Assembly (NCBI GenBank): GCA_016840425.1
Contig: JAEOSI010000009.1
Span: 1-22,922, forward strand
Reading direction: 5' to 3'
From: Candidatus Wukongarchaeum yapensis
Lineage (GTDB): Archaea; Asgardarchaeota; Wukongarchaeia; Wukongarchaeales; Wukongarchaeaceae
DNA length: 22,922 nucleotides
Positions 257-19,459 of the stretch are shown in pieces. The notes under the pieces were generated by a model that saw nothing but the letters and a program-made list of their open reading frames with translations, made no database searches and was not told where the DNA came from. Every line of letters begins with the position of its first letter. Within the stretch, counting starts at the first letter, position 1. A program made the position numbers and the translations under genes.

Positions 257-1507
257 ATGAAAGTTTATTCAACGGGTATAAAAGAACTTGATAAGATTTT
301 GGGAGGAGGTATTCCGCATAGCTGTTCTGTTCTTTTGCTTGGAGAGACGGGGACAGAGCCTGAAACGTTAGCCTTTGAAATCTTGTATTTTCACCTTAAA
401 CAGGGGGGACAGGGAGTGCTTTATGTTTTCGATCACCCTCCTTCAGAAGTTAGGCATAAAATGAAGAGCTTTGGGCGGGACATTAAAAAGTTTGAGAAGA
501 ATGAAGAAAAACTCATTTTGGCCGATTTTTTCACCCATGCCTTTAGTTTAGAAGAGTTTTATGAGCCTGAGAAATATTTTTGTAAAAGACCGACAGACTA
601 CACTTATATCACGGACTACTTTGATAATATTTGGCAAATATTACTACAAAAATTAGGAGATAATAGGGGTTATTTGGGCGTTGTTTTTTCCCTTACTACG
701 GTGGCTCATTGGTGTGGTGAGAGAGAAGCTTTAAGACTTGCTTATTTAATAGCTACGAAATATAGGCCTTTGGGATGCACTATTTTTGTTTTGGATCCAT
801 CCACTGTGAATGAAAGTACTTTGGGCATGTTAAAAAACAGGAGCGAAGTCGTGATAAACCTCTCCATTGAAGAATTTAAAGGGGTTTCAGAGAAGAGGAT
901 AATGGTTTTAAAGTCGCCTCTACCCGCATGGTTAAACAAACCCCTAACTTACACATCTTTACCAGAAAAAGGTTTCTTTATCAGGGAGTCCATTATCCAA
1001 GAATTCGAGGCTTTTAAAGAGACTATAAAATTCGACGAAGATACTGACGAATTAAAGGTTTATGGCGCACCAAGTGTTTTGATAACACGTCGCCTTGTTT
1101 TAGAACTTTTGGAAAATATGAATAACAAGAAAGTTGAGGAGATATTAGTAGAGGCTATGATTCGTTACCTAAAAATTTTGGAGGTAAATACCCATTTAAA
1201 AGGAGAAAAGCTTTTAGAATACTATCTTAAAAGCTTGCCTGTTCGGGGTTGGGGCTTTATTGAGCTTGTTGAATTCAGAAAAAACAAATTTACTTTACGC
1301 AAAAATCCTACAGACTTTGCAGGCGAATACAAGGAAGGTCTTGAAGGGTTTAAAGCGCTTGTTAAAGGCATTGTAAAAGGTGCGGGGTTCTATTTTTTTG
1401 GCAATAAGGTAAGAGTAAAAGAGAAAAAATGCATTTTGAAAGGTGATCCTTTTTGCGAGTACGAGGTAGTTAAGTTGTCTCCCAAGAGAACAGTAAATGA
1501 AACCTAA
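257..1507 (+). CDS. KaiC/RAD55-like (RecA-fold) protein with degenerate Walker motifs, fused to a C-terminal V4R domain
   Basis: N-terminus STGIKELDKILGGGIP is typical of archaeal KaiC/RAD55. The Walker A position reads GETGTEPE (no GKT). The C-terminal ~150 aa carry GWG and end in CILKGDPFCEY, the V4R signature. Confidence 0.8.
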   Translation: MKVYSTGIKELDKILGGGIPHSCSVLLLGETGTEPETLAFEILYFHLKQGGQGVLYVFDHPPSEVRHKMKSFGRDIKKFEKNEEKLILADFFTHAFSLEEFYEPEKYFCKRPTDYTYITDYFDNIWQILLQKLGDNRGYLGVVFSLTTVAHWCGEREALRLAYLIATKYRPLGCTIFVLDPSTVNESTLGMLKNRSEVVINLSIEEFKGVSEKRIMVLKSPLPAWLNKPLTYTSLPEKGFFIRESIIQEFEAFKETIKFDEDTDELKVYGAPSVLITRRLVLELLENMNNKKVEEILVEAMIRYLKILEVNTHLKGEKLLEYYLKSLPVRGWGFIELVEFRKNKFTLRKNPTDFAGEYKEGLEGFKALVKGIVKGAGFYFFGNKVRVKEKKCILKGDPFCEYEVVKLSPKRTVNET

Positions 1508-1620: not shown

Positions 1621-3159
1621 GTGTTCTTCTCAGAACCTAAGGTTAGCCTGCCAGCCTATGTTGCTATTTTTGATACCACTTTGAGGGACGGGGAGCAAAT
1701 GCCTGGGTGCGCTCTACGCCCAGAAGAGAAGACTGAAATTGCTCATCAGCTTGACATGCTGGGAGTAGACGTTATCGAGGCAGGTTTCCCCATAGCAAGC
1801 GAGGGCGAAAGGCAGGCAATAAAATCTATCACGAAAGAAGGTTTGAATAGCGAAATTTGTGGTTTAGCAAGGTCCAACAAGGCAGATATTGATGCAGTAA
1901 TATCTTGTAACGTGGACAGAGTGCACACTTTTATTGCTACAAGTGCTTTACACATGGAAAAAAAGTTGAAGATGACGCCAGAAGAAGTGATTGAACACGC
2001 TGTTTCCGGCGTTGAGTACGTGAAGGATCATGGGTTAAAGTCGGAATTTTCTGCAGAAGATGCTACTCGAAGCGATATAGAGTTCTTGAAGAAGGTTTTT
2101 GCAAGCGCTGTTGAAGCAGGAGCGGACGTTGTGGATATCCCAGACACAGTTGGGGTTGCTATCCCAAGAACAATGTTTCACATAGTTCGAGAAGTTAAAA
2201 GCGCTGTAAATGTTCCAGTAGCTGTACACTGCCATGATGATTTCGGTTTAGCGGTAGCTAATAGTCTGGCTTCTGTTGAAGCAGGAGCAGAACAAGTTCA
2301 TGTGTGCGTTAATGGGATAGGGGAGAGGGCTGGAAACGCTTCGTTAGAAGAGGTAGCCTTGGCGCTTCAAGTCCACTACGGTATACAGACAGGTATAAGG
2401 ACGGAAGAAATATACAAAACATCTCAACTTGTTATGCGGTTAATGCGTGTACCTATAGCTCCTAACAAGGCAATAGTTGGCGCTAACGCTTTTGCTCACG
2501 AATCGGGTATACATTCCCACGGTGTCTTAGTATCTCCCAAAACTTACGAACCAATCGCTCCAGAAATGGTGGGGGCTCGAAGAAAGTTTGTTGCAGGTAA
2601 ACATGCAGGAAAACATGGTGTTAAGGCGATTCTTGAAAGTATGGGGATCTATCCCACGGAAAACCAGTTGGATGAGATAATTTATCGCGTAAAAGAACTT
2701 GGAGACAAAGGCATAAAGGTGAGCGATGCCGACCTTGAAGGCGTTGCTAGGGCTTTAATTGGAGAAATACCCAGCGAAGAAAAATCTTTGGAGCTCATCG
2801 ACGTTACAGTTGTTTCAGGAAATAAGGTGCAACCTTTTGCCGTTGTCAGGTTGAAGGTTAACAGTGATGTTAAAACTTACACGAATTTTGGAGTAGGACC
2901 TATTGATGCCAGTGTAAGGGCCGTGAAGATGGTGGCAAAAGATCTTGTGAACTTCGATTTGACTGGTTTTGAATTGCGGAGTATAGGTAAAGGTACTGAA
3001 GCTTTAGGCGAGGTTACCGTAGATATTGAGGATGACGAGCGTAACGTTGTTTCTTCGAGAGCTGTAAGAGAAGATATAGTTCTGGCAGGAATAGAAGCAG
3101 TTATTGACGCTGTAAACAGGTTAATCCTTACACGCAAAGGAAAAACAGGAGCAAAATAA
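1621..3159 (+). CDS. leuA: 2-isopropylmalate synthase (archaeal LeuA/CimA family, LeuA-like) with C-terminal regulatory domain
   Basis: Motifs DTTLRDGEQ, EAGFP, CGLAR, HTFIATS, EFSAEDATR, PDTVG, HCHDDFGLA, NGIGERAGNA and HESGIH. These residues fit archaeal LeuA better than CimA. Adjacent to leuC/leuD. GTG start is uncertain. Confidence 0.85.
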   Translation: MFFSEPKVSLPAYVAIFDTTLRDGEQMPGCALRPEEKTEIAHQLDMLGVDVIEAGFPIASEGERQAIKSITKEGLNSEICGLARSNKADIDAVISCNVDRVHTFIATSALHMEKKLKMTPEEVIEHAVSGVEYVKDHGLKSEFSAEDATRSDIEFLKKVFASAVEAGADVVDIPDTVGVAIPRTMFHIVREVKSAVNVPVAVHCHDDFGLAVANSLASVEAGAEQVHVCVNGIGERAGNASLEEVALALQVHYGIQTGIRTEEIYKTSQLVMRLMRVPIAPNKAIVGANAFAHESGIHSHGVLVSPKTYEPIAPEMVGARRKFVAGKHAGKHGVKAILESMGIYPTENQLDEIIYRVKELGDKGIKVSDADLEGVARALIGEIPSEEKSLELIDVTVVSGNKVQPFAVVRLKVNSDVKTYTNFGVGPIDASVRAVKMVAKDLVNFDLTGFELRSIGKGTEALGEVTVDIEDDERNVVSSRAVREDIVLAGIEAVIDAVNRLILTRKGKTGAK

Positions 3160-4556: not shown

Positions 4557-5063
4557 TTGAAAATGGCGGTTATACATGGAAAGGTTTGGAAATTTGGCGA
4601 TAACATAGACACTGACATAATTATTCCTGCACGCTACCTTATCTTACCCATAGAAGAGGCAAAAGAAAAAGCTATGGAACCAATAAGGCCAAGCTTCTCT
4701 AAAGAGTTTGAGAAGAGTGGCATCATAATAGCTGGAAGAAATTTTGGTTGCGGTTCAAGCAGAGAACAAGCACCAGCAGTCTTAAGGGCTTTAGGAGTAA
4801 GCGCGATCGTGGCGAAAACTTTTGCAAGGATCTTTTTTAGAAACACGATAAACCTAGGAATACCCGCAATAGAATGCAAAGAAGCATGCGATAAAATCGA
4901 GGAAGGAGAAGAGATCGAGATAGAACCAGAAACAGGAAAAATAAAACTACTAAAACAAGCCATCACTTTACAAGGTTCAAAACTCCCCCCATTTTTGCTT
5001 GAAATCATAAAAGATGGCGGATTAATACCTCATTTGAAAAAACGATTAATTATAGGCGTATAA
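4557..5063 (+). CDS. leuD: 3-isopropylmalate dehydratase small subunit (likely start at ATG 4563)
   Basis: GDNIDTDIIIPARYL, AGRNFGCGSSREQA and FARIFFRN motifs. The specificity loop YLIL is hydrophobic (IPMI-like rather than the homoaconitase YLRT). Confidence 0.85.
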   Translation: MKMAVIHGKVWKFGDNIDTDIIIPARYLILPIEEAKEKAMEPIRPSFSKEFEKSGIIIAGRNFGCGSSREQAPAVLRALGVSAIVAKTFARIFFRNTINLGIPAIECKEACDKIEEGEEIEIEPETGKIKLLKQAITLQGSKLPPFLLEIIKDGGLIPHLKKRLIIGV

Positions 5064-5944
5064 TTGTTTTTACACCTAAAAACCCTCATTTAATTTTTTT
5101 CTTTACACCTCTTTTTATTTCGAAAGAAGAATTAATTCGCGGATCGTCCTTCCTAATAAACGTTCTTTACACCGTTATTTTTTAATTTCAGGATCAACTA
5201 AGTAAAAACAAATTAAAATAAAAGGTTTCCAAAGAGATAACAAAAAACAAAAGCAGAAAACATTTAATAAACAAAAAGTCCCCAAAAAATAAGCAAAAAA
5301 AGCTAATAAACAGGTCTCCATAGGAAAAAAGAAAACAAAGGAAAATAAAAAGAGAAAAAACAACAAAAGTATAAAGATCAAGAAAAACACGAATTCAACC
5401 AGCTAAAACCACCAGAATCCCATTTAGCTACCCTTAAAAGAAACACCGAACAAACACACTTTAAGCAAGACAACAAAAAACAAAAACAGGTCTCCACACA
5501 GAAAAACAAAACGGAAACCCGTCCCAACAGCAAGAACGTATTAAAAAAACGGTTAAACCCATAACACTCCTCCTGCCATCTAAAACAACTCCAAAAACCT
5601 ACTTCTTACTGCTAGGATGAGCTCTATCGACTTTTGAAACGGAAAAGCAACTTTTTCCTTCATTCAGTAGATCCAAAAGCAAAAATTTTCGATTTTAATT
5701 TGTCAGTTGGTCTGATTTTAGTAATATTCAGTATGGATACAATTTTCTTAAACTGTGATCCGCTTGATACGAACTCCTATGCGCCTAAATCTGAATGTAC
5801 CCCCCATGGGGGCATTCACGAAGCCTCAGCCTACTTTCGGAAGTAATGTCATTTATAAAACTTTTAATAAGCGTTAATATCACTTCTCTAAAACTTTAAA
5901 ATTAGTGAAGAAAAGCCTGAAATAATCATGATAGAGGTTAAAAA

Positions 5945-6610
5945 ATGTTAGATGAAGAGTTTTCTAGGACAGAATTTAAAGAACTATTTGACGCCATAAT
6001 GGAAGGGAACCGAGAAAAAGGAAAATTTATAGCCAACGCCTTAGTTGAACAGCAAATAAACCTAAAAGATGCACTCCTTGAAGGAGTAATGAGAACAGTA
6101 GTCAGGCTAGGAAACATGCTCAGTAGCAAAAACCCTGAAGACGTGAAAAAGTGGTCCGAATGCCTGATCACTATCTATGACGTATTAAACATCTTTAACA
6201 AAAACATTAAACCATCTGAAAAACCAGTAGGAAAAATTATCCTCGCATGCCTAAAAGGAGAAGGACACGCCATCGTTAAAGACATCCTTGCACCCGCATT
6301 CCGTGCAGAAGGCTTCGAAGTATACAACTTTAGATCACCAGCAACACCCCAACAAATCATGGAAAAAATCAAAGAAACAAAAGCAGACATCCTAGCCATC
6401 TCTGCAAGCATGAGAACGATGATAGAAGAAATAAAGAACCTCGACCAAGCATTAAAAACCGCAGGATTAAGGGAAAAAATCAAAATCCTAGTAGGAGGTT
6501 GGCTGGTTAGAAGAACATTCTTCGAAGAACTCAAGCCAGATCTAGACGCGTGGGCAAAAGACGCTTCAGAAGGTGTTGAAATAGTAAAAAGCTTAGCCCA
6601 GCAAGCCTAG
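5945..6610 (+). CDS. Corrinoid/cobalamin-binding protein (MtbC/MtaC-like cap plus B12-binding Rossmann domain), divergent motif
   Basis: Helical cap followed by GKIILACLKGEGHAIVK (canonical GDIHDIGK), GFEVY, ISASM and KILVGG. Confidence 0.75.
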   Translation: MLDEEFSRTEFKELFDAIMEGNREKGKFIANALVEQQINLKDALLEGVMRTVVRLGNMLSSKNPEDVKKWSECLITIYDVLNIFNKNIKPSEKPVGKIILACLKGEGHAIVKDILAPAFRAEGFEVYNFRSPATPQQIMEKIKETKADILAISASMRTMIEEIKNLDQALKTAGLREKIKILVGGWLVRRTFFEELKPDLDAWAKDASEGVEIVKSLAQQA

Positions 6611-6657
6611 ACCAGATAACTGTTAAGCTGTTAAAATTTCAATACTTAAATGAAGTT

Positions 6658-6727
6658 AAACGTAGTCGCCATGACCAAAACAAAAAAAGGGATTTTATGA
6701 GGAGAGACCGTTCAGACGACTACGTTT
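6658..6727. repeat. 70-bp element bounded by an 11-bp perfect inverted repeat; core recurs at 14727-14810
   Basis: AAACGTAGTCG at 6658-6668 and CGACTACGTTT at 6717-6727. The 18-mer TTTTATGAGGAGAGACCG is identical at 6693-6710 and 14748-14765. Confidence 0.7.
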
Positions 6728-6938
6728 GTCAACGATCATAGGTTTGATATCCTAATATAAATATTTTTCCTTTTACATATATAAAATTCTTCCACCCAAA
6801 ACCGTGGCAAAAACAACTATAAGCCCTCCAATCACCTCCCCCAACAGGCTAGAACCTACACCACAAAAATCATGAAAAGCCCTTACTAAAAGATTAAGAA
6901 GATTTAGAAAAATGACAAAAGTTATTTATATATAGTTC

Positions 6939-7188
6939 GTGGAAGGGCTGGTGGAGCTAGTGGGAGAGATCTCTAACGTCAACATTGACGACTTCATCGC
7001 TCACCAGCATCTAGGTGAGAAGCGGAACTACTACGTCGTAAATTACGGCACAGGCGAGTACGTGAGAGAGGCAATGCCCGTATCAGTACGGTGAAGGGTC
7101 TGTTGCAGGATTCAAGGCGCTAGTTAGACTCCTAAAAGAGAGTCAGCAAGAAAAACCTACACCTCTTCATCTCCATTTTCTCAGTTAA
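6939..7188 (+). pseudogene. Unidentified frameshifted coding relic
   Basis: The stretch is visibly more GC-rich than its flanks and follows a TATA-like TTATTTATATA. A 51-aa frame (6939-7094) continues plausibly in another frame (7078-7188) after a 1-nt shift at ATGCCCG. Confidence 0.3.
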
Positions 7189-7330
7189 AGTACAGCCTAG
7201 AAATCTAAATCCAAAGGGCAACTTCACAGAACTTCTACTTACAATGCTTTGCACAACATTAGAAATATAAAGGCAAAGAACATCATTTCTTTTACCAAAC
7301 AAAAGAGCACGATCAGCAGGTGGTATTTCC

Positions 7331-8173
7331 TTGGAAAATGAAGTTAGAAGACGAATTATGGATGAACGCTTAAAAAAGGTTAAGGATAGAATGAGTAAAG
7401 TGAAGCATAAGATCGCTGTGATCAGTGGGAAGGGAGGTGTTGGCAAAAGTGTCGTAACCGTGAACCTCGCCATGGCTTTTGCAGTACACGGTTATGATAA
7501 TAGAGTAGGTATTCTTGATGCAGACATAACTGGTCCCTCTGTACCTAAGATAATTGGTTTACAGGGTGAGAGGCTTGTAGCCGAGCCTCAGGGCACAGTA
7601 ATTCCAGCGGTAGGCCCCTTAGACATCAAGGTTGTATCCATGGGCTTTCTGCTTCAAACTGAAGAAACACCAGTCATCTGGCGCGGTCCCCTAAAGGCAA
7701 GGGCAATCAACCAATTTTTATCGGATATTCTTTGGGGTGAACTGGACTTTTTGTTTATAGATCTTCCTCCAGGAACTGGTGATGAGCCCTTGAGCATTAT
7801 GCAACTCCTACCAGAGATGGATGGCGTGGTAATAGTTACAATACCTTCAGAAGTTTCACAAATTGTTGTCAAGAAGGCAGTTACTTTTGCTAAGCATCTG
7901 AAGATTCCTATCATAGGCATCATAGAGAATATGAGCGGTTTCATCTGCCCAAAATGCGGCGAGGAGATCGACATCTTCAAAAGAGGAGGAGGACAAAAGA
8001 TATCTGAGGATATGAACGTTCCTTTTCTGGGAAGAATCCCTATAGACCCTGAAATATGCGAATACTCTGATAAAGGCTTGTCCTTCATAGTTGAACATAA
8101 AAATTCACCAGCAGCAAAAGCTTTTATGGAGATTGTAAAAAAGATAGAAGAATTCTTAAAATCAAAAGAATGA
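7331..8173 (+). CDS. mrp: Mrp/ApbC/NBP35 family Fe-S cluster carrier ATPase
   Basis: SGKGGVGKS, LDADITGPS, VIWRGP, DLPPGTGD, ENMS and CPKC motifs. Confidence 0.9.
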   Translation: MENEVRRRIMDERLKKVKDRMSKVKHKIAVISGKGGVGKSVVTVNLAMAFAVHGYDNRVGILDADITGPSVPKIIGLQGERLVAEPQGTVIPAVGPLDIKVVSMGFLLQTEETPVIWRGPLKARAINQFLSDILWGELDFLFIDLPPGTGDEPLSIMQLLPEMDGVVIVTIPSEVSQIVVKKAVTFAKHLKIPIIGIIENMSGFICPKCGEEIDIFKRGGGQKISEDMNVPFLGRIPIDPEICEYSDKGLSFIVEHKNSPAAKAFMEIVKKIEEFLKSKE

Positions 8174-8572
8174 GAAACCTGCTGAGTGAACTGTTCCTGC
8201 CTTATTACTCTTTTCTGAAACTACTAATCTGAATTAAAGCCGATAATAGGGCTTTAATATTGAATTCTTCACTGTAATGCTTAGTAGTAGAATCAAAAGA
8301 CAAAATAGTGTAACAATAACTTATAACAGGACGAAAACGGTTCTGGATAAGAGTTTCTGAAAAACCTATTATTGAACGCGAAATCCTTTGCAACTAAGTT
8401 TAAAAGATACATTCTACGAAGTAAAAAATCAAGAACTTTTCTTCTTACAAAAAGTCGCTAAGAAAGCTCAAATCCTCCAGGGTTGAGATGAATTAGGGGA
8501 GGTGGGTGGGAGTATATACAAATTTGAAATATATTAAAAAATGTATACGTTATTTTGTTTTATATTGTTTAT

Positions 8573-8704
8573 ATGAGGGTAGAGAATCCTGTCAAACGAA
8601 AGCGTCTTCCAACTTTGTGGACTCACTCGAAGTTTATATCCTCTGTCGGGGCTGTAACTCTTGAAGTTGTTAAAAAATACATTGAAGAGCAGAAGGGGAA
8701 ATAG
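8573..8704 (+). pseudogene. tnpA: C-terminal 43-aa stub of an IS200-type Y1 transposase
   Basis: MRVENPVKRKRLPTLWTHSKFISSVGAVTLEVVKKYIEEQKGK matches the TnpA C-terminus (LPTLW..S.F...VG; catalytic Y in KYIEEQ). The HUH region is absent. Not in the ORF track. Confidence 0.8.
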
Positions 8705-8706
8705 AG

Positions 8707-9960
8707 ATGAAGAGGACCAACATCTTCAAGTTAAAGCCAGCAATTAAGGAGCAGGAGCAAAGACTGTTCGAGTTAGCCGATAACTGTGCAAGGATGTTTA
8801 ACGAGATAAACTATAAGCGTAGACAGTCCTTTTTCTCGCGAAACTTCGACTGGAACACCGACGAATCCTACCACAAGTATAAGAAGGTTATAGGCTCTGC
8901 TACAGCTCAACAAGTAACAAGGAAGAACAACGAGGCTTGGAAGTCTTTCTTCGCTTTGTTAAGGTTGAAAAAGCAGGGAAAACTCCCAAGGCAGATAAGA
9001 AAGGTTTCTCCTCCAGGCTACTGGAAAGACAGGAAAACGGGGAAAAGGGTTTTAATGATTCTTATAAGGTGTAACTGTTATAAGCTTTCCGAGAAGTATC
9101 TAAAACTCCCCTTCGGGCTAAAAGTTAGGTGGAAAGGAAAGAACAGGTGGGAGGGGAAAAAGCAGGGAAGGTTAGAGATACGTTACGATGACCTCTCAAG
9201 CCGATGGTATGCTTATATGCCGGTAGAGGTAGAAAGAAAACCGCTACATCAACCAACAGGAGACAAGAAAAAGAAGGCATACGTCGACTTGGGGATCATA
9301 AACATCATAACCAGTTGGATAGAAGGAGAAAAAAGACCGGGGATATATTCTGGTAGTACTGTTTTAAGCGATTGGTGGTATTGGAACGAAAAAATAGGAG
9401 AATATCAAAGCAACATGGAGAAAAACGGGAAAAGGAAAACATCAAAAAGGTTAAGAAAATTGTTTAGGAAGAGGAAGAAAAGGTTTAGACATTTGATAAA
9501 CACGATAATAGCGAGGTTTGTGAAAAACTGCTGGGAAAAAGGAGTTTCAGAAATCGTTATAGGAGACGTAAAAAACATAAGAGAGAACAGTAGAAAGAAA
9601 AAGAAAGGTAGAAAAGCTAACGCTATGATAAACAACTTCTGGTCTTTTAACTACATCTACGAAAGACTAAGAACAACGGTGGAAAACTACGGGATAAAGA
9701 TGAGGAAAAAGGAGGAGAAATACACGTCTAAAACATGTTCTCTCTGCGGGAAAGTGCACAGAAACGGTAGAAAACACAGGGGACTATACGTTTGTAAAAC
9801 GCACGGGGTAACAATGAACGCTGATGTTAACGGTGTTGCAAACATAGCTAACCCCATATTCCCGAAGCCCTACTGGCGGGATAGGGATAACTGGCTGGTG
9901 ACACAGCCATCAGTTGTGAAAGCTCTAATTTTCACAACCGTAAAACCTCCAACCCTTTAG
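8707..9960 (+). CDS. tnpB: TnpB RNA-guided endonuclease (IS605 OrfB family)
   Basis: RuvC-I VDLG, RuvC-II position IGD, E-x-YTS followed by CSLCG...CKTH zinc finger, and RuvC-III NADVNGVANI. The stop codon lies inside the right-end hairpin. Confidence 0.92.
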   Translation: MKRTNIFKLKPAIKEQEQRLFELADNCARMFNEINYKRRQSFFSRNFDWNTDESYHKYKKVIGSATAQQVTRKNNEAWKSFFALLRLKKQGKLPRQIRKVSPPGYWKDRKTGKRVLMILIRCNCYKLSEKYLKLPFGLKVRWKGKNRWEGKKQGRLEIRYDDLSSRWYAYMPVEVERKPLHQPTGDKKKKAYVDLGIINIITSWIEGEKRPGIYSGSTVLSDWWYWNEKIGEYQSNMEKNGKRKTSKRLRKLFRKRKKRFRHLINTIIARFVKNCWEKGVSEIVIGDVKNIRENSRKKKKGRKANAMINNFWSFNYIYERLRTTVENYGIKMRKKEEKYTSKTCSLCGKVHRNGRKHRGLYVCKTHGVTMNADVNGVANIANPIFPKPYWRDRDNWLVTQPSVVKALIFTTVKPPTL

Positions 9961-10084
9961 GGTGGAGAGTATGTCAGTGAATTTAAATAAGGTTTTGGTA
10001 TTTCTCGTCTTTGTAGATGTTTCCTAGTTGTTTGGTAGTAAACGTAATGATGGTGTTTTTAGAAAGCTGTTTGCTGAAGATCTT

Positions 10085-10849
10085 TTAAATGAAATGTATT
10101 TCCCTTAGTATGGCTGTGATGTCTACTAAGGCTTCTTTAGCCGTTAATGGGACGCCCTCTAGGGAAGACTTAAAGACCTCTTCATCAAACCGCACAACCC
10201 CTGCCACTTCTAATCCCATATTCCTAGCTTTTGACATTACTATGTCAGCTGTTTCCGGCGTTACCTTATTTATCACGAGCCAAAATTTCTTTTTCATTTT
10301 CGTTAATTCTTCTTTGAGGATTTTAGCTAACATAAGCGACTCAGCTGTTGGGTCAACTATTGCTAAAGCTGCATCGCATCCCTCCTCAACCCCTCGACCT
10401 AAATGCTCTAGACCAGCATCTGCATCAACGAGGATCATTTCTCTATCCTCTAACAACAGATTCTTGAGAAGAGTTTTAGCTAGAAAATTGAAAGGACAGG
10501 CGCATCCTTCCCCTAACTCTCTCACCTTACCTATGGTTACTAACTTGATGTCCTCAGGCGATGAGGATACATACTCGCTGGGCAAATTGGCTAATTTAAT
10601 GCCTTCTCCAGCTTCTATTAATGCATTTACTATGTTGACTTCTCCTCTTTTGAATATATCTTTCTTACCTCCAAGATATTCAACAAGAGGTTTCGGCGAC
10701 CCTGCACCGAGAATCTGAGGAAGCAAGGTATTAGACTCATCGGAGTCTACTACATAAACTTCATAATTTTTAGATAACACCTTGGCTATGAGAACTGTTA
10801 AAGCTGATTTCCCTGAACCGCCCTTACCGCAAATCATAACCTTCATCAA
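10085..10849 (-). CDS. cooC: CooC/AcsF-type nickel-insertion ATPase
   Basis: CGKGGSGKS, DSDES, EGCACP nickel-binding motif and DADAGLEHLGRG. Confidence 0.85.
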   Translation of the reverse strand: MMKVMICGKGGSGKSALTVLIAKVLSKNYEVYVVDSDESNTLLPQILGAGSPKPLVEYLGGKKDIFKRGEVNIVNALIEAGEGIKLANLPSEYVSSSPEDIKLVTIGKVRELGEGCACPFNFLAKTLLKNLLLEDREMILVDADAGLEHLGRGVEEGCDAALAIVDPTAESLMLAKILKEELTKMKKKFWLVINKVTPETADIVMSKARNMGLEVAGVVRFDEEVFKSSLEGVPLTAKEALVDITAILREIHFI

Positions 10850-10861
10850 AACATCACCTCT

Positions 10862-11059
10862 TCAAGCTTTAGGCTTAAGAATCATAACGGAGTTAAGCGT
10901 GTCTATTAAAGACACATCGACTTCTTCTAACGTTGCCACTTCCTCAAGTTCTATGCTCTTCAAACTAACTATGTTTCCTTCCTTGACTATAAGGGCAACA
11001 TCCCTAGCAATAAGCTTCCTGCCCGTATATTCCTCTAGATAGACCTTAAGTAGACACAT
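10862..11059 (-). CDS. cooT: CooT-family nickel-binding protein (start reassigned to the second ATG)
   Basis: 65 aa beginning Met-Cys (MCLLKVYL), the CooT hallmark; ends 12 bp upstream of cooC. Confidence 0.7.
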   Translation of the reverse strand: MCLLKVYLEEYTGRKLIARDVALIVKEGNIVSLKSIELEEVATLEEVDVSLIDTLNSVMILKPKA

Positions 11060-11508
11060 TTGTTTTCCCATTTGATAGAAGAGCTACTCCAATAAATTTT
11101 TTTTCCATTGAGACTTGTCGTAATTTTTCAATCAATTGCTAGAGTATTACCTAAGCTAATACTTTTTCGCCCAACTTTACATCTAACTCAACAAAAGGAT
11201 TTAAATGAAAGCTTACCCCAATTTTATCCTCATGTAGCAAGAAGACCCTTCCGCAACACTCTACCCACATATTAACTGTTTTTTTGTTTTTTAGCCGTTT
11301 TGGGAAAAGTTAAGTAAGTTAAACCTAGTGTAAAAACTGTTTTGTTTTTAGGTTTTTGTTTTCTTTTTTGCAGGTTGATTTTCCTTGATGTTTTTCGTTG
11401 TTTTAGGTTTTGCTTTCCTTCTACAGCTGTTAGTTAATCATACGGCTTCTCTATTCCCGGCTTCTCATCGAAAATCTTATTGCGATTGTAATTTATTATA
11501 GTGTATCT

Positions 11509-11533
11509 TCACAATGGGTTTAGCAAATTGTGA
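11509..11533. promoter_or_regulatory. 7-11-7 inverted repeat (TCACAAT-N11-ATTGTGA) upstream of the TATA-like box of mtaA
   Basis: Perfect 7-bp arms about 20 bp upstream of TTTTATAA (~11554-11561) and about 60 bp before the ATG. Confidence 0.35.
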
Positions 11534-11595
11534 GAAACCTAAGAGCTAAATATTTTTATAATGGATTTAACTAGGAGAGAATAGGATGTGTAAAC

Positions 11596-12624
11596 ATGGT
11601 TGAAATGACGCCTAGAAGAAGGGTTCTTGCTGCGTTAATGGGAGGTAAAGTTGACAGGGTGCCGGCAACCTGTATCGGTGGTTGCGGTGGATCTGTTTGT
11701 GTGGAAATACAAGAGGCTGTGGGAATCTATTGGCCAGAAGCCCATAGGGATGCCGAAAAGATGGCTAAGCTCTCATCAGCGGCTCAGAAATTGACAGGAC
11801 TTGAGAATTTAAGGGCTCCTTATGACTTCGCTATTATGCCCGAAGCTTTAGGCTGTAAAACTGAATATCGGGATAAGCCTGAGGCTAAGCCCGGGGTTAG
11901 AGAGCACCCGTTTAAAAAACCTGAAGACTTAAGCATGCCGGATGATTTCCTCGAGAAAGGTAGAATACCTGCCGTGCTGGAAGCTCTCAGCCTATTAAAG
12001 GAGGAATCAGACGATTTCCTGCCTGTTTCAAGTTTTGCCCTCGGACCTTTCTCACTTGCAGGACAATTGACAAAACCAGAGGATCTCATAATGTGGACAG
12101 TGACTAAGCCTGACTATGTTGAAGAGTTTGTGAAGTTTTCTACAGAGGTTGTTATTGAGTATGCTAACGCACAGTATCGGGCTGGTTCGGACGTGATAAC
12201 TATCGGCGAGCCTTTAGGGGCGCCAGATATAGCGGGTCCTGATGCTTTTAGGAAGTTTGTTAAGCCGGCTTTAATTAAACTGGCTAATAACTTGCAAGGG
12301 ATAAAGATTTTTCACCCTTGTGGAGATTGGAACCGGTTCGTTTCTGACGTTATTGAGACCGGTTTTGACGGTATAAGTACCAGAGAAGAAATTGATATTA
12401 TGCGCGTTAAACCTCAACTGGGCGATATTAGGATTTTAGGCAATATTTCCTCTAAGGGAGTGCTGACTTTCGGTTCTCCTGAGGAAGTAAAGACCGAGGC
12501 AAGAAAAGCTTTAAAACTAGGTGTAGACCTGCTTGAGCCAGCTTGCGGGGTTGAGCCCTTAATGCCCCTCAAAAACATAAAAGCTCTCGTCGAGGTAGCT
12601 AGAGAGTCTAAAAAGGAAGAATAA
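11596..12624 (+). CDS. mtaA: MtaA/CmuA-family methylcobamide methyltransferase (UroD fold)
   Basis: MTPRRRVLAALMGGKVDRVP start, EALGC, GRIPAVLEA, zinc ligands H-P-C and PACG, and LGNIS. The methyl acceptor is not determinable. Confidence 0.8.
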   Translation: MVEMTPRRRVLAALMGGKVDRVPATCIGGCGGSVCVEIQEAVGIYWPEAHRDAEKMAKLSSAAQKLTGLENLRAPYDFAIMPEALGCKTEYRDKPEAKPGVREHPFKKPEDLSMPDDFLEKGRIPAVLEALSLLKEESDDFLPVSSFALGPFSLAGQLTKPEDLIMWTVTKPDYVEEFVKFSTEVVIEYANAQYRAGSDVITIGEPLGAPDIAGPDAFRKFVKPALIKLANNLQGIKIFHPCGDWNRFVSDVIETGFDGISTREEIDIMRVKPQLGDIRILGNISSKGVLTFGSPEEVKTEARKALKLGVDLLEPACGVEPLMPLKNIKALVEVARESKKEE

Positions 12625-12642
12625 TCCCAATTCTCACATTAA

Positions 12643-12757
12643 AATCGCAGAAAGCCAACGGCTTTAGTCTTTGGATGAATGCGATAAACTAATACACGGT
12701 TAGTAGTATATAAACATCGCTGCCACGCCGAGTAATTAGTGTCTGAGGCACAATTAC
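12643..12757 (+). mobile_element. Solo IS200/IS605 left-end-like scar with TATA box and downstream hairpin
   Basis: TCGCAGAAAG-CCAACGGCTTTAGTCTTTGG-ATGAAT parallels TCGCTAAGAAAG-hairpin-GATGAAT at the 8449 left end. TATATAAA at 12707-12714. No transposase follows. Confidence 0.6.
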
Positions 12758-12860
12758 GGATAGATGACCAGACCCATGCCTAATTTTTTGATATAATTTA
12801 TCTAACTTTTGATTTTTTTATATAACCTATCTTATTTTTTTATTTAAGGAGGTTTTAGGT

Positions 12861-13235
12861 TTAAAATGGGTGTTCGGCTTCTTTACAGGGCTCTTCTAAG
12901 GGCGTGGTTTCATTTTTCAGGAATTCGTTTATGGCTTCTTTTAGGGTTTGTGACTTGCATGTTAATACTTTTATTCCGTGGCTTTTAATCATATTTATTC
13001 CTCGGGGTCCCATATTTTTAACAATTAATGCATTTGCCCCGCTTTCAGCAATGATGATTGCTGGCCGTCCTCGACCTCCGAAGTGTTGACCTTTGTTCTC
13101 CATATAGGTGATTTTTTCGACTTTTCCTTCATCAGATATCTCCACACTAGCGAAGAAGGGAGCTTTTCCAATATGGGGGAATATTCTGGCATTATCGCTA
13201 TCTTTTCCATCTACTGGTATTACTATTTTTACCAT
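12861..13235 (-). CDS. NifB/NifX-family (MTH1175-like) cofactor-binding protein
   Basis: KIVIPV...PHIGKAPFF (H.G.A..F) and IVKNMGPRG...GIKV signature; 124 aa. Confidence 0.8.
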   Translation of the reverse strand: MVKIVIPVDGKDSDNARIFPHIGKAPFFASVEISDEGKVEKITYMENKGQHFGGRGRPAIIIAESGANALIVKNMGPRGINMIKSHGIKVLTCKSQTLKEAINEFLKNETTPLEEPCKEAEHPF

Positions 13236-13265
13236 TATTTCTCATCTCACTTGTCTTATTTTTTG

Positions 13266-13320
13266 GTTTATTTTTAAACGTAATTAAATAGAGTTTTGTT
13301 TATTTTTAAACGTAATTAAA
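13266..13320. repeat. Perfect 23-bp direct repeat, two copies, 32-bp period
   Basis: GTTTATTTTTAAACGTAATTAAA at 13266-13288 and 13298-13320. Confidence 0.9.
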
Positions 13321-13332
13321 AATGTTTGATTT

Positions 13333-13665
13333 TTAGAGGAGCATGCTATGGCACATAAACCACAACCCCCCACAAGGCTCTTCAAAAAACATTATGGTTT
13401 TTGGAAGTAGCGCAATAGCATTATATTGACAGAGATTTGCGCATTTTCCACAAAAGTTGCACCTATATTCATCAAAAACAGGGGTTGGAATAGTTATATC
13501 TTCTACAATTTTTAGGGGTATGTTGAGAAATAAGTGACCGTTTGGCTCCTCTAAGTCACAGTCTATAAGCTGTACCTCTCTTTCATCTGCAAGGGAAAGA
13601 GCAAGATTTACAGCTATAGTAGTTTTTCCTGTTCCTCCTTTTCCGCTAGCTATGGCTATCTTCAC
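13333..13665 (-). pseudogene. Truncated MinD-type P-loop ATPase with inserted ferredoxin domain (COG1149-like)
   Basis: SGKGGTGKTT, DCDLEEPN and CNFCGKCANLC motifs. An extra G in the G6 run (13366-13371) breaks CGGCGLCAIAC, and homology ends right after, so the C-terminal half is missing. Confidence 0.8.
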
Positions 13666-13976
13666 AAAAAATCCCTAAAAAATCTAAAAAAAACTCCATA
13701 CCAAAAATTAAACGATATTTATTTGAATTTACCAAGGACCACCAATTAAACTCATCTTAAACGTTTTAATTTTAGATGTGAGCCGAAAATCCCTTAAAAA
13801 GTATGAGGAAATTACGGTATTTGATGCTGAGAGATGATGAGAAAGAATGAGCAAAAAGTTCGCTTATACTGACCAAATGGGAGATAAGGCAAAGTTCGTA
13901 TATCCTCCTAAATAGGAACAAAAAGCGGAATTTGTATATACCGAGTTAGACGTAAAGTTATTTTGAGGGTTAATAC

Positions 13977-14528
13977 ATGAAAGTTGTGTATATTTCGGGA
14001 AGTCCTAGGAAAAAGAGTAATACAGATTATCTTTTAAAACTTACATTGTCCATAACTGGTGGGCAATTTGTAAAACTTACAGATTATCAAATAGAACCTT
14101 GTAAATCTTGTTGGGCATGTCAAAAGTTAGGTGAATGTGTGATTGATGATGAGATGAGTAATGTTCTTATACCAATGCTCCTCGAGAGTGATGGAATTGT
14201 TTTAGGCAGTCCGGTTTATTTCAATAACGTATCTGCTCAGCTCAAAGCTTTTATTGATCGTACATGGTGTATTAGAGGTAAACTTGAAAATAAGATCGGT
14301 GGTGCCATTGTGGTTGGTCGAAGATATGGTTTGGAAAGTGCTATTGGTGCTATTAATTCTTTGTTTCTTAAACATGAGATGATTCCAGCGAATAGAGGAG
14401 TTTGTGGCATAGCTTTTCTGAAAGAAGAAATAATACAAGATTCCGAAGCCATAGGATCGGCAAAGAAACTCGGTGAGCGTATACTGGAGCTTTGGGGTAT
14501 GTTGAAATATAACAATACACAAAAATAA
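13977..14528 (+). CDS. Iron-sulfur flavoprotein (Isf) / multimeric flavodoxin family
   Basis: GSPRKKSNT FMN loop, CKSCWACQKLGEC (CX2CX2CX5C) and GSPVYF...SAQLKAFIDR. Confidence 0.85.
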   Translation: MKVVYISGSPRKKSNTDYLLKLTLSITGGQFVKLTDYQIEPCKSCWACQKLGECVIDDEMSNVLIPMLLESDGIVLGSPVYFNNVSAQLKAFIDRTWCIRGKLENKIGGAIVVGRRYGLESAIGAINSLFLKHEMIPANRGVCGIAFLKEEIIQDSEAIGSAKKLGERILELWGMLKYNNTQK

Positions 14529-14539
14529 TAATGCAATTC

Positions 14540-14621
14540 GCCTAACATAGCACATACGCTTTGGCTACGCCTTGCTCTTCGAGAGAGGGTCGGAATTATA
14601 TGCAATAAGGGGGCCTTAGCG
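14540..14621. repeat. Degenerate attC-like palindromic element after the Isf gene
   Basis: GCCTAAC (RYYYAAC) 11 bp after the stop codon, GCACATA/TATATGC near-complementary boxes and an internal CTCT-TCG-AGAG hairpin. There is only a poor R-prime box (CTTAGCG). Confidence 0.3.
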
Positions 14622-14726
14622 CAAGCTTTAGAGATCCTTAAAAACCGCCTTAAAACAAGGGTAACACCTAAAAATCTCAACGTTCTGAATTCACCGCTTA
14701 AGAAAATAGGGTTTGTGACCGCATAC

Positions 14727-14810
14727 GACCAAAACGAAAACTAAGGGTTTTATGAGGAGAGACCGAGAGACTATTCGGGTGACTACGAGAGAACCTACCA
14801 CTAAAATCAT
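14727..14810. repeat. Second copy of the dispersed element seen at 6673-6873
   Basis: Shares GACCAAAAC, TTTTATGAGGAGAGACCG, GACTACG, AGAACCT and AAAATCAT in the same order. Confidence 0.7.
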
Positions 14811-15520: not shown

Positions 15521-16144
15521 CTATGTTGTTTCTATTAGTTTTTCTATTTGCTTTTCAATTTCTTCCTTTTGCGGTATTGCACTTTTTGACTCTATTTTTA
15601 GGGGGTTTCCTTTTTTGAAATAGAGTAGGATAGGGGTACTGGTAATACCGTATTCTTCCCAAGTGTTCGTGGACGTTATGTCCATTTGATAAAAACGGAC
15701 TTGGTCTTTAAACCTTTCTTCAACATCTTTTAAATCTTTCTCCAATCTTTTACAGGAAGGACAGTTTTTGGACATAAAAATTAGGGCTACTGGTTTGTTT
15801 GATTTCAAAACTAAAGCTTCAAATTCGTGGTCATTTATCGTTCTTATAAAAGCTTCTCCTTCCTCTTTTTTCGGTTTTATTTTGAATATTTTTAATATTT
15901 TGTCAAAGATGCTTTCATACTTTTTGTATGATATACGGTATCCTAGGTCTTCGATCTTCTTCTCAAGGTCGGGTACGTCGATTTTTTCTGGGTCATATGT
16001 CACTACAACTTTACGTATTAGGAGGTTTATGCGGACATCTTTAACGCCTTCCAGCTTCTTCATCTCTTTTTCTATAGTTAGAGCGCAAGAAGCACAATCC
16101 ATTCGATCAATAGGTATGGTCTTTCTCAAGTAATTTTCCGACAT
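15521..16144 (-). CDS. HMA (CopZ-like) domain fused to a thioredoxin domain
   Basis: N-terminal MDCASC with LEGV...DLGY HMA pattern. C-terminal CPSC with cis-Pro loop ITSTP and FKKG. Confidence 0.8.
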   Translation of the reverse strand: MSENYLRKTIPIDRMDCASCALTIEKEMKKLEGVKDVRINLLIRKVVVTYDPEKIDVPDLEKKIEDLGYRISYKKYESIFDKILKIFKIKPKKEEGEAFIRTINDHEFEALVLKSNKPVALIFMSKNCPSCKRLEKDLKDVEERFKDQVRFYQMDITSTNTWEEYGITSTPILLYFKKGNPLKIESKSAIPQKEEIEKQIEKLIETT

Positions 16145-16316: not shown

Positions 16317-16460
16317 TTATTTTAAGTATTTTTCAGGGTTTTTCTCGAATTTTTCCTTACATGCTTGACAGCAGAAATAGTAGGTTTCTCTTTCATATTC
16401 TGTTTTATAAGGTGTTTTTTTCTCATCCACTTCCATTCCACAAACAAGGTCTTTTGCCAA
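16317..16460 (-). CDS. Stand-alone YHS/TRASH metal-binding protein, 47 aa (not in the ORF track)
   Basis: TTG start after a GGGTGA ribosome-binding site. Translation MAKDLVCGMEVDEKKTPYKTEYERETYYFCCQACKEKFEKNPEKYLK. Confidence 0.9.
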   Translation of the reverse strand: MAKDLVCGMEVDEKKTPYKTEYERETYYFCCQACKEKFEKNPEKYLK

Positions 16461-16546
16461 CTATTATCACCCTAGTAAAACTTTATTGGCAGTTAATCTT
16501 TTTTATAAATAAAGCCTTCCTTATCTTAAAATCAAGATCTGACAAA

Positions 16547-17293
16547 TTACTCTTTAGATAATACTACTCCCTCTGTTGGTGTGATTGTGTAATGTAATGG
16601 TTCTTTTAAATAACCGAACAAAGGTGATTTAATAACCCTTAAAAATCTATTAAAACGTTTACTAACTTTTTCTACGGAAAATCGAATCACTATATCTGCA
16701 AAGTTCTCAAGCATTGCTAAACCCTTCTCACTAGCGATTCGAGGATCGAGTAGGTACAAAGCAGTACCAAGCGGTTTGTACTTCATCCTCGAGGCATAAA
16801 CAAATTTTAAAGCTTCATCTTCCCCAGTAAAATGGAGTAAACGTCCAGCAGAAAGGATAACGCCGAAATATTCTCCTGGCTGGGTTCTTTGCAAAATCTC
16901 CTCCCTTAATTTATGTGCAAAGTTACCAATATAGGTTATATCAGTAGGGCGTTTACAATAATATTTTTCTTTTGGATAAAAACTTTCAAGATCGAAAGCA
17001 TGTGTAAACATGTCCGCTAAGATAAACTTCCCTTCTTCTTCATATTTTTTCAAATTCCAACCGTAAGTCTTCATTTTTTCTCGCAAATCCATGGGCGGCA
17101 AATCAAAGTCATAAATAACACCTAAGTCCCCTGCCTTCAACCGATTCCACAAAATCTGTAATGCAACAATATCAGATTCAGAACCAATATCTGTTAAAAA
17201 AAGGATCATAGAATTTCGAGGGATACCGCGGCCCAAAATCTCATTAAACTTGTCTATTCCCGTAGAAATAAGGCGTTCAGATTCTCTCTCCAT
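16547..17293 (-). CDS. KaiC/RAD55-like protein with degenerate Walker motifs
   Basis: ISTGIDKFNEILGRGIP start; Walker A position reads TDIGSESD; clear paralog of 257-1507. Confidence 0.8.
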   Translation of the reverse strand: MERESERLISTGIDKFNEILGRGIPRNSMILFLTDIGSESDIVALQILWNRLKAGDLGVIYDFDLPPMDLREKMKTYGWNLKKYEEEGKFILADMFTHAFDLESFYPKEKYYCKRPTDITYIGNFAHKLREEILQRTQPGEYFGVILSAGRLLHFTGEDEALKFVYASRMKYKPLGTALYLLDPRIASEKGLAMLENFADIVIRFSVEKVSKRFNRFLRVIKSPLFGYLKEPLHYTITPTEGVVLSKE

Positions 17294-17386: not shown

Positions 17387-19459
17387 TTAAAGCGTTTTTG
17401 GGTTGAATCTTTTGAGTAGTAGGGAGTTTGTGACTACTGTTACTGAGCTTGAAGACATGGCTGCTGCAGCGTAAATTGGGTCTAAGAGTAGGCCTAGTAA
17501 TGGGTATAGTAGACCTGCGGCAATAGGTATTAGGGCGGTGTTGTAGAAGAAGGCCCAGAAAAGGTTTTGTTTAAATTTTCTTACTGTTTGTTTGCTTAGT
17601 TGTATTGCGGCTACTACGTCTCTTAGGTCGTCTTTTACCAGGATTATGTCGCCGGTTTCTACGGCTACGTCTGTTCCGCTCCCGATGGCTATTCCTATAT
17701 CAGCTTGTGCTAGGGCAGGGGCATCGTTTATTCCGTCCCCTACCATGCCTACGATTTTTCCCTCGTCTTGCAACTTTTTTATGACGTTGGCTTTATCTTG
17801 GGGTAGAACCTCTGATAAAACCTTTGTTATTCCAAGTTTTTCCGCTATGGCATCTGCGGTTCTTCTATTGTCGCCTGTGAGCATGATGACTTCGATGCCC
17901 ATTTCTTGGAGTTTTTTCACCGCATCCTTTGAATTTTCTTTTAAAGTATCGGCTACCGCGATAAGCCCCTTGATCATTTTATTTACTGTAAGGATCATTA
18001 TTGTTTTTCCTTCTTTTTCGAGGGCTTGGATTTTTTCTTCTATGTCTTCGTAAGGGATACTGTTATTTTCCATGAGTTTTCGGTTGCCCAAAAGAATTTC
18101 TTCTCCGTCATAAACTGCTTTTACTCCTTGGCCTGGTACTGCTTCAAAAGATTCAGCGTCCGGGATGTCCAAACCTTTTGCTTTTGCTCCTTTTACTATA
18201 GCTTCCCCTAAGGGGTGTTCTGACCCTTTTTCAGCCATGGATGCCAGTTTTAAAACTTCATCCGAGAGTTCGATTGGCACAACGTCTGTTACTGAGGGTT
18301 CTCCTTTGGTGAGAGTTCCTGTTTTGTCAAATACTATTGTTTGTACTTTATAGGCTCTTTCCAGGTATTCTCCGCCCTTGATCAGGATGCCGTTCTCTGC
18401 CCCTTTCCCTGTCCCCACCATGATAGCGGTAGGTGTAGCAATACCTAAAGCACAAGGACAAGCAATTATTAGTACTGCTATGAGTATTGCAAGGGAAAAA
18501 GTAAAGCTTTCATCGCCTATAAAATACCATATAGAGAAGGAGAACAAAGCGATTAATATCACAGAAGGTACGAAGCGGGCGGATATATAATCGGCAAGTC
18601 TCTGCATTGGAGCTTTAGAAAGCTGGGCTTCTTCGACCAAATTTATGATCTGGGAAAGAGTGGTGTCAGATCCAACTTTTATTGCTTTAAATTTTAACAG
18701 TCCCACCTTGTTGAGAGTAGCACCGATAACCTCATCGCCTGGATTTTTCTCTACGGGAATGCTTTCTCCTGTGATCATTGATTCGTCAACAGAAGAATGA
18801 CCTTCAATAACCACCCCATCTACAGGTATCTTTTCTCCAGGCCTAACTACCACTATATCATCAACTTCGACGGATTCTACCGGTATTTCCGTCTCTTCTC
18901 CATCTCTTATAACGTGGGCCATCTTAGGCTGGAGATCCATGAGTTTTATTAAAGCTTCTGAAGCCCTTCCCTTAGCAAGATCCTCTAACAATTTACCTAC
19001 AAGGACTAGGGTTATGATGGCGGCAGCTGTGTCGAAAAATACTTCGGTTTCTTCGAAGATTTCAGGGAAAAATGTTATGATGGTGCTGTAACCATATGCT
19101 GCCGAAGTTCCCATGGCTATTAGGGTGTCCATGTTTGCCGTTCTAACTTTTAAAGCATCAAATGTCCCCTTATAATATCTCCAACCCGCTCCAAACTGTA
19201 CCGGGGTTGCAAATAAGAAAAGCCACTTGTTTTTACTGAAAAAAGGTAAAACATCAAAAAAACTGAAAAAGAAAATAAGAACGGTAAAAGTAAAGCTAAA
19301 AACGACTAACAGCTTTAAATTTCTTAGTTCAACTTCAGGCCTCTCAAAGGTTCTTAAACAAGTCTCACTACAAAAATAATACATTCGCCCCCGAATCTCT
19401 GCTTTAAAAGGAGCCTTTTTTTCATCAACATACATACCGCATACAGGATCTTTTGCCAT
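17387..19459 (-). CDS. copA: Cu(I)-translocating P1B-1 ATPase with an N-terminal YHS domain and no HMA domain
   Basis: KDPVCGM...YFCS..C N-terminus, [24 protein letters not shown], and YN and MxxSS in the C-terminal helices. Confidence 0.92.

Follow-up and report, generated by a model that had tools for sequence, protein, structure and literature searches.

Three catalytically degenerate KaiC-like paralogs of an Asgard archaeon share an ancestral loop and occupy distinct conserved gene contexts

The window analysed here, a stretch of 22,922 nucleotides from Candidatus Wukongarchaeum yapensis (GenBank assembly GCA_016840425.1, contig JAEOSI010000009.1, positions 1 to 22,922), carries two genes for KaiC-like proteins with degenerate ATPase motifs (Table 1). 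P0001, the type C paralog, lies at the start of the window on the forward strand and consists of a KaiC-like domain followed by a V4R-like C-terminal domain. P0002, the type A paralog, is a stand-alone KaiC-like protein encoded on the reverse strand within a copper-efflux cluster. A third paralog, type B, is found on another contig of the same genome. The three form a small clade of inactivated KaiC-like (iKaiC) proteins that share a conserved loop, and we consider, with some reservation, that they act as adaptors.

Both window proteins match the Pfam KaiC family (PF06745) above its cut-off of 26.6 bits, at 59.3 and 69.7 bits, and they are 44% identical to each other over 238 amino acids (E = 5e-69). 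Word-index searches for homologs returned five relatives of P0002 and five close relatives of P0001. The nearest NCBIfam model is TIGR03877 (thermo_KaiC_1, the PH0284 type), whose cut-off of 307 bits is not reached by either protein (64.5 and 72.3 bits); nor do they reach the ArlH/FlaH cut-off of 215 bits, scoring 23–33 bits. The AlphaFold2 (AF2) models predict that both are RecA/KaiC-fold proteins with the fold intact. The P0002 model has a predicted local distance difference test (pLDDT) score of 94.7 and a predicted template modelling (pTM) score of 0.92, and its closest solved structure is PH0284 of Pyrococcus horikoshii (PDB 2dr3; template modelling (TM) score 0.82–0.87). The P0001 model has a mean pLDDT of 80.4, and its N-terminal domain superposes on 2dr3 with a Z-score of 27.7 and a root mean square deviation of 2.2 over 225 residues. 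PH0284, SSO2452 and the CI domain of KaiC are the best solved matches of the models; among the matches listed for the full-length P0001 model, all cover the KaiC domain only. PH0284 is also the best sequence match (E = 1.1e-17), and it has the same length, the same fold and the same D-x-F-T...EKY...D block as the window proteins.

A feature of the two proteins is the complete loss of the catalytic apparatus, judged against the reference patterns GxxGxGK[ST] for Walker A and hhhD-S or hhhhD for Walker B. Walker A is degenerate in both (Table 1), and the Walker B aspartate is replaced by phenylalanine in P0001 (VVFS) and by leucine in P0002 (VILS). The catalytic glutamate pair is gone: the LEEHP segment of PH0284 aligns with FDLPP in P0002 (Asp64-Leu65), and reads FDYPP in type B and FDHPP in type C. 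The arginine finger is gone as well, KMRG being aligned with KSPL, and all clade members have K-S-P-L or K-A-P-L at this position. PH0284, by contrast, keeps GPGTGKT and the glutamate pair, and active relatives close to it keep hhhDS and KMRG, none of which is present in the window proteins. All four elements are missing from each of the 11 clade sequences. A preliminary description of this DNA had reported that the Walker A lysine and the Walker B aspartate are absent from both proteins and had proposed a pseudo-ATPase subfamily, and both statements hold for every member found. Two P-loop positions are acidic in the clade; because of this acidic P-loop chemistry, its proteins are predicted not to hydrolyse ATP and probably do not bind it.

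Type B has the P-loop GNMGADPE, and the corresponding block reads DFYTHAF...EKYFCKKPTD. Types A, B and C group as one clade with 100/100 support, within which A splits from B and C. This clade is sister (100/96) to P0008–P0010, which are KaiC plus V4R proteins of 410–430 amino acids with an ETGSM.E P-loop, and the two together are nested in a group of 21 sequences (98/92), none of which has the Walker A lysine. Since the P-loop lysine is absent from all sampled members of the sister clade and of the wider group, inactivation probably predates the clade of types A, B and C. The distribution of the clade is narrow. When 400 genomes from the phylum were scanned, it was found only in the genus of the window itself (two of two genomes), and the sister clade only in one other genus (five of six genomes). 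A clade profile searched against 1.8 billion representative proteins retrieved four clusters below 1e-30. Sequencing runs listed as carrying the sequence are DNA metagenomes from marine sediment, marsh, mangrove, seawater and soil, with no RNA run among them.

Inactivated KaiC-like domains, including iKaiC-REC, DUF835 and MEDS, are described in PMC5847659, which cites Makarova, Galperin and Koonin (2017, mBio 8:e01959-17), as parts of a proposed archaeal KaiC signalling hub. P0001 and P0002 show both the KaiC homology and the loss of catalytic motifs by which iKaiC proteins are recognized. The likeness extends further, to one KaiC/RecA-fold domain, its ATPase motifs degraded, that stands alone or is fused to sensor or output domains, to varied signalling neighbours, and to the position of type B directly after a PAS-DUF835 protein. 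The clade differs from the published forms in its confinement to one genus, in a histidine and a cysteine on a B-loop-like segment and in having one paralog inside a copper-efflux cluster. Set against iKaiC as described in PMC5847659, it is a narrow new branch of an already described group.

The preliminary description had also noted a near-identical block, D[FM]FTHAF...EKY[FY]CKRPTD.TYI, in both proteins. The block is indeed there, with 22 of 29 residues identical (76%) compared with 44% overall. It had been called an insert specific to this subfamily, however, and neither term survives comparison with relatives. The block pairs residue for residue with PH0284, the P0002 segment LADMFTHAFDLESFYPKEKYYCKRPTDITYI being only five residues longer than its counterpart, and active homologs of other Asgard genomes have VDGFTGGIGEAAKREKYVVRAPDDVQSL together with GTGKT and VIDS. 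The comparison set consisted of 56 non-clade relatives in which both regions are covered; 25 of them keep GK[ST] and 31 do not. In P0002 numbering, D94 is present in 22 of the 25 GK[ST]-bearing and 29 of the 31 GK[ST]-lacking relatives, an aromatic residue at 96 in 23 and 24, E109 in 15 and 13, and P116 in 14 and 13, respectively. The skeleton of D94, aromatic 96, S/T97, E109, P116 and D/N118 is thus frequent in active and inactive relatives alike, and the pattern D..[FY][ST]...EK[YF]...P.D occurs in GK[ST]-bearing proteins too; it is a general feature of single-domain archaeal KaiC-like proteins. The clade-specific residues are His98 and Cys113 alone: both are invariant in the 11 clade members, and outside the clade His98 occurs in 5 of 56 sequences and Cys113 in 2 of 56. 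A single one of the 56, on an unrelated branch, has the two together. In the P0002 model this region comprises a strand (90–94), a short helix (97–100), a loop (101–118) and a helix (119–136). The alignments indicate that the block is the ancestral strand-3/loop/helix element of single-domain archaeal KaiC-like proteins, carrying one clade-specific histidine and cysteine.

Table 1. Positions of the features discussed, in window coordinates unless another contig is named.
Feature	Positions	Strand	Remarks
P0001, type C paralog, 416 aa	257..1507	+	Open reading frame (ORF); KaiC-like domain (residues 1–245) and V4R-like C-terminal domain
Degenerate Walker A of P0001, GETGTEPE	341..364	+	Third Gly to Glu, Lys to Pro, Thr to Glu
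Conserved block D90–I118 of P0001, DFFTHAFSLEEFYEPEKYFCKRPTDYTYI	524..610	+	Strand-loop-helix segment with His94 and Cys109
Linker and V4R-like domain of P0001	1001..1504	+	E..C.......C columns
leuA, 2-isopropylmalate synthase	1621..3159	+	Immediately downstream of type C, co-directional; Pfam; NCBIfam NF002085, 650 bits (cut-off 517)
HMA-thioredoxin fusion	15521..16144	-	Last conserved member of the copper cluster
Stand-alone YHS/TRASH protein, 47 aa	16317..16460	-	Directly downstream of the type A paralog
P0002, type A paralog, 248 aa	16547..17293	-	ORF; KaiC-like, stand-alone
Conserved block D94–I122 of P0002, DMFTHAFDLESFYPKEKYYCKRPTDITYI	16928..17014	-	Contains His98 and Cys113
Degenerate Walker A of P0002, TDIGSESD	17171..17194	-	First Gly to Thr, third Gly to Glu, Lys to Ser, Thr to Asp
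CopA-type P1B ATPase with N-terminal YHS domain	17387..19459	-	Directly upstream of the type A paralog; conserved neighbourhood
Type B paralog, 244 aa	G000:C110:9563-10288		Same genome, other contig
Truncated type C ortholog	L033 5098-5835		GCA_976553735.1 contig; last ~60 KaiC-domain residues and V4R domain

Of the 248 columns, 48 show no variation in the clade, and the densest windows of 32 residues hold 13–14 of these, a modest clustering (permutation p about 0.03). These windows start between residues 63 and 91 and span about 63–122, so the residues that precede the block are conserved to the same degree as those within it; this region is the best-conserved part of KaiC-like proteins generally. 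Separately, P0146 (2,848 aa) and P0037 (515 aa) represent another branch of dead KaiC-like domains (P-loop GPPGVERD), which lie inside very large proteins. Both have a cysteine at the same loop column, and P0146 also has the histidine at the other, the sole case outside the clade with both residues.

In a profile alignment, the block covers the segment LDASPDPEGQEVVGNFDLSAL of the KaiC CI domain, residues about 115–130, which includes the B-loop, and Asp118 of P0002 aligns with KaiC D123. B-loop residues 116–123 of KaiC are the binding site of KaiB (PMC12084410). The thioredoxin-like domain of SasA also binds the B-loop, and substitutions of F122 and D123 weaken the binding of KaiB and also that of SasA (bioRxiv 10.1101/2020.06.17.158394). 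The block thus occupies the same strand-to-helix excursion as the KaiC B-loop, a likeness of position; KaiC itself is a double-domain active ATPase and kinase, whereas the window proteins have a single dead domain. Because of this equivalence, we favour partner docking among the ligand, metal or partner-binding sites suggested in the preliminary description. We regard it as fairly probable, if well short of secure, that P0001, P0002 and type B, which make up a small clade of iKaiC RecA-fold proteins, act as nucleotide-independent adaptors with a B-loop-like docking surface. From the position of the block, the paralogs would be adaptor or scaffold subunits that bind one shared partner through this B-loop-like surface. 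Type A would link this partner to the CopA/YHS/HMA copper-efflux cluster, type B to a PAS-DUF835 sensor with a low-molecular-weight phosphatase, and type C to its own V4R small-molecule-sensor domain, beside ilvE and leuA.

Several observations weigh against such an adaptor role. The B-loop equivalence is one of sequence position only, and compared with that of KaiC, the loop of these proteins has about 15 extra residues. No docking partner was identified for P0001, P0002 or type B and, unlike in the KaiC system, no KaiB-like partner was identified. Since the thioredoxin-like folds of KaiB and SasA dock on the KaiC B-loop, a complex of P0002 with the neighbouring HMA-thioredoxin protein was predicted; the score was 0.00, which gives no verdict in either direction. 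The type C copy in L033, a contig of a relative, is without the N-terminal three quarters of the KaiC domain (about 185 residues) and keeps the V4R part, so that the KaiC domain of type C is dispensable in at least one lineage. Finally, the nonsynonymous substitution rate (dN) of type A is about 0.20 compared with 0.03–0.09 in its neighbours, that is, 2.5–8 times higher, which suggests weak or shifting constraint.

The same surface could instead be a ring or client contact, if the paralogs formed a mixed ring with each other or with the active KaiC-like ATPases of the genome. Pseudo-ATPase rings are known in eukaryotes, in the form of Elp4/5/6 and the Rad51 paralogs. The solved homologs 2dr3 and KaiC are hexamers, and three KaiC-like proteins with intact GxGK[ST] and K-M-R finger are encoded in the same genome (contigs C232, C140 and C273). 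The models also match the Elp456 structure (Z = 19.1), and there is a weak match to the Pfam PAXNEB (Elp4) family at the N-terminus. However, Z = 19 is well below the value of 27 obtained with KaiC-like proteins, the PAXNEB match (E = 0.004; 16.6 bits with a cut-off of 28 bits) covers a generic N-terminal motif only, and the three paralog genes lie in three unrelated and separately conserved neighbourhoods. We consider a mixed ring decidedly unlikely.

The neighbourhood of type A is a copper-efflux cluster that reads, on the minus strand of the window, CopA, iKaiC, the 47-amino-acid YHS protein, the HMA-thioredoxin fusion and then a B3_4 protein. Contigs with iKaiC proteins that are 64–67% identical to P0002 show the same CopA–iKaiC–YHS–HMA order, and wherever a contig is of sufficient length, type A has CopA on one side and the YHS gene on the other. 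YHS orthologs that are 77–83% identical occupy the same place in the contigs L028, L031 and L051 of relatives. The YHS/TRASH gene is itself shorter than the default minimum of the ORF list. The cluster resembles the archaeal cop cluster (CopA, a TRASH/YHS chaperone and CopR) in combining CopA with small YHS and HMA proteins in one direction, but it differs from it in the dead KaiC-like gene between CopA and YHS, an arrangement found in this lineage only. No CopR-like regulator was seen in the window. In another Asgard genus, g3, the HMA-thioredoxin fusion is present in four of four genomes, and in the two of these in which the adjacency was examined it adjoins CopA with no KaiC-like gene between; the copper cassette can therefore work without an iKaiC protein. 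Judging from gene order, type A is a lineage-specific addition to a known copper cassette.

Given this context, the loop might carry a metal or redox site that is built from His98 and Cys113, with Met95 or Asp64 as potential further contributors, and that may span an interface between subunits or with a partner; type A would then be a copper sensor or chaperone. The clade-wide invariance of the two residues and their rarity elsewhere fit such a site, as does the place of type A between CopA and YHS. Moreover, Cys113, the sole cysteine of P0002, is the sole cysteine in four of the six type A proteins overall, and Met95 is present in five of the six. Yet types B and C, without adjoining metal genes, show the same invariance of this histidine and cysteine, and because these paralogs keep the two residues, a copper-specific role is unlikely as the primary explanation. 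Each chain offers two candidate ligands with no CxxC, Met-rich or His-rich motif, two residues are unexceptional among 48 invariant positions out of 248, and the g3 cassette has no KaiC-like gene. On this evidence a metal site seems unlikely. A related idea, which we hold to be very unlikely, is that the pair serves throughout the clade as a Cu(I)- or redox-sensitive switch, within the chain or bridging to a partner, that controls docking, type A being copper-responsive and types B and C being redox reporters. Were this so, type A would represent a novel class of copper-responsive regulator with a pseudo-ATPase as its scaffold, and types B and C would report redox state to the PAS-DUF835 sensor and to the branched-chain amino-acid genes.

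Dead KaiC-like genes also occur near copper genes elsewhere. In L058 (G003:C1:1362000-1376000), from a small-genome Asgard lineage, such a gene (FDPGSGE, DFDHGP, VVKNQF) heads a tight co-directional string on the minus strand (4687-13978). It is followed by a 539-amino-acid protein without a Pfam match, a tubulin (Pfam Tubulin, 1.4e-46), a 484-amino-acid protein with a weak, sub-threshold ATG16 match, an HMA-thioredoxin protein and CopA. In L059, a dead KaiC-like gene lies about 4 kb from an HMA-thioredoxin gene.

The rates of change in these genes bear on a further explanation, that the iKaiC proteins are evolutionary leftovers of little or no function whose block is kept for folding alone. 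Type A orthologs are 64–67% identical, compared with 84–94% for their neighbours; the iKaiC-V4R proteins of a sister genus are 60–75% identical, compared with 85–88% for PanB and an amidohydrolase; and one relative has the truncated type C copy. However, the ratio of nonsynonymous to synonymous substitution rates (dN/dS) of type A is 0.25–0.27 between the window and three relatives; because a ratio of about 0.25 denotes purifying selection, type A is not a decaying gene. In addition, no contig has a broken reading frame, the three types are older than the split between the species and have been retained since, synteny has been maintained and the P0002 model is confident. The iKaiC genes are functional but fast-evolving, and we consider the leftover explanation highly improbable. 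The comparison of dN given above included CopA, the HMA-thioredoxin gene, B3_4, leuC and leuD. The synonymous rate (dS) shows a pattern of its own: it is 0.5–0.9 for the iKaiC and YHS genes (16317-17293) and 0.15–0.5 for CopA, HMA-thioredoxin and B3_4, and the middle of the copper cluster may have been exchanged by recombination, or may be mutating faster.

Like type A, types B and C have synteny that is conserved and type-specific in independent contigs. Type B follows a multi-PAS protein with a C-terminal DUF835 domain and faces a low-molecular-weight phosphatase gene, an arrangement kept in five contigs. Type C precedes leuA, an order also found in L033, and in a relative it lies beside ilvE. 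The copper-cluster and V4R contexts pointed out in the preliminary description are therefore both real and kept in relatives. The C-terminus of P0001 is a weak match to Pfam V4R (PF02830), at 17–18.7 bits with a cut-off of 31 bits. Its homology to the sister-clade V4R domains nevertheless extends from end to end (BLAST E = 2e-8, and by alignment), and these domains score 39.7–62.1 bits for the same family. Three of the four cysteine and glutamate columns of V4R (C...E..C.......C) are kept, namely the glutamate and the last two cysteines, and the first cysteine column has phenylalanine or alanine. KaiC plus V4R fusions are known from ESM Atlas, in which sizeable automatic clusters from Chloroflexota and Methanobacteriota are named 'KaiC/V4R domain-containing protein', and from P0008–P0010. 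P0001 has the same domain order as these fusions, and its linker and V4R-like domain are homologous to those of P0008–P0010, but unlike them it is without the first conserved V4R cysteine and its Pfam V4R score is below the cut-off.

The nucleotide similarity of the truncated type C gene of L033 to the window begins at window position 811. Its product, P0158 (245 aa, 81% identity), was considered as an ortholog of P0001 without a V4R domain and rejected, as it consists of the C-terminal end of the KaiC domain and the V4R domain of the truncated copy.

In the sister genus (L071, G037:C1:2743500-2755500; also L044 and L047–L050), two tandem iKaiC-V4R genes always follow panB, which encodes ketopantoate hydroxymethyltransferase. 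The enzymes encoded by panB, leuA and ilvE all act on 2-ketoisovalerate, and because all three are neighbours of V4R-bearing iKaiC genes, these forms may be tied to the 2-ketoisovalerate branch point.

The main result is a correction: the supposed insert is a loop of ancestral origin, and the pseudo-ATPase condition, itself old, has been described before, so that no new kind of system is at hand. KaiC-like proteins have been proposed as the main signalling hubs of archaea, and Asgard archaea are the archaeal group closest to eukaryotes. To our knowledge, almost no archaeal KaiC-like proteins have been characterized, the dead ones least of all. The clade provides a compact case, with three paralogs that have the same conserved surface in three clean, conserved gene contexts, and it is suited to asking whether KaiC-like proteins in general use the B-loop position for docking.

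Finally, some observations concern the remaining DNA of the window. In L028 and L031, leuD is the immediate neighbour of the copper cluster at its HMA or B3_4 end, so positions 5064-14806 of the window amount to about 9.7 kb of extra DNA. This segment holds a TnpB gene (8707-9960) and genes for a corrinoid B12-binding protein, an MtaA-like URO-D methyltransferase, Mrp/NUBPL- and CbiA-type P-loop proteins, a NifB/X-like protein and a flavin mononucleotide (FMN) reductase. An FrhB-like gene is also present in the window. Without the extra DNA, only about 6 kb would separate the two paralogs, which point in opposite directions; a local duplication would fit this layout. A 110-amino-acid ORF (13333-13665, minus strand) comprises the first ~50 residues of a CbiA/ParA P-loop domain and a single 4Fe-4S motif, and resembles a piece of a longer MinD/Fer4-type gene.

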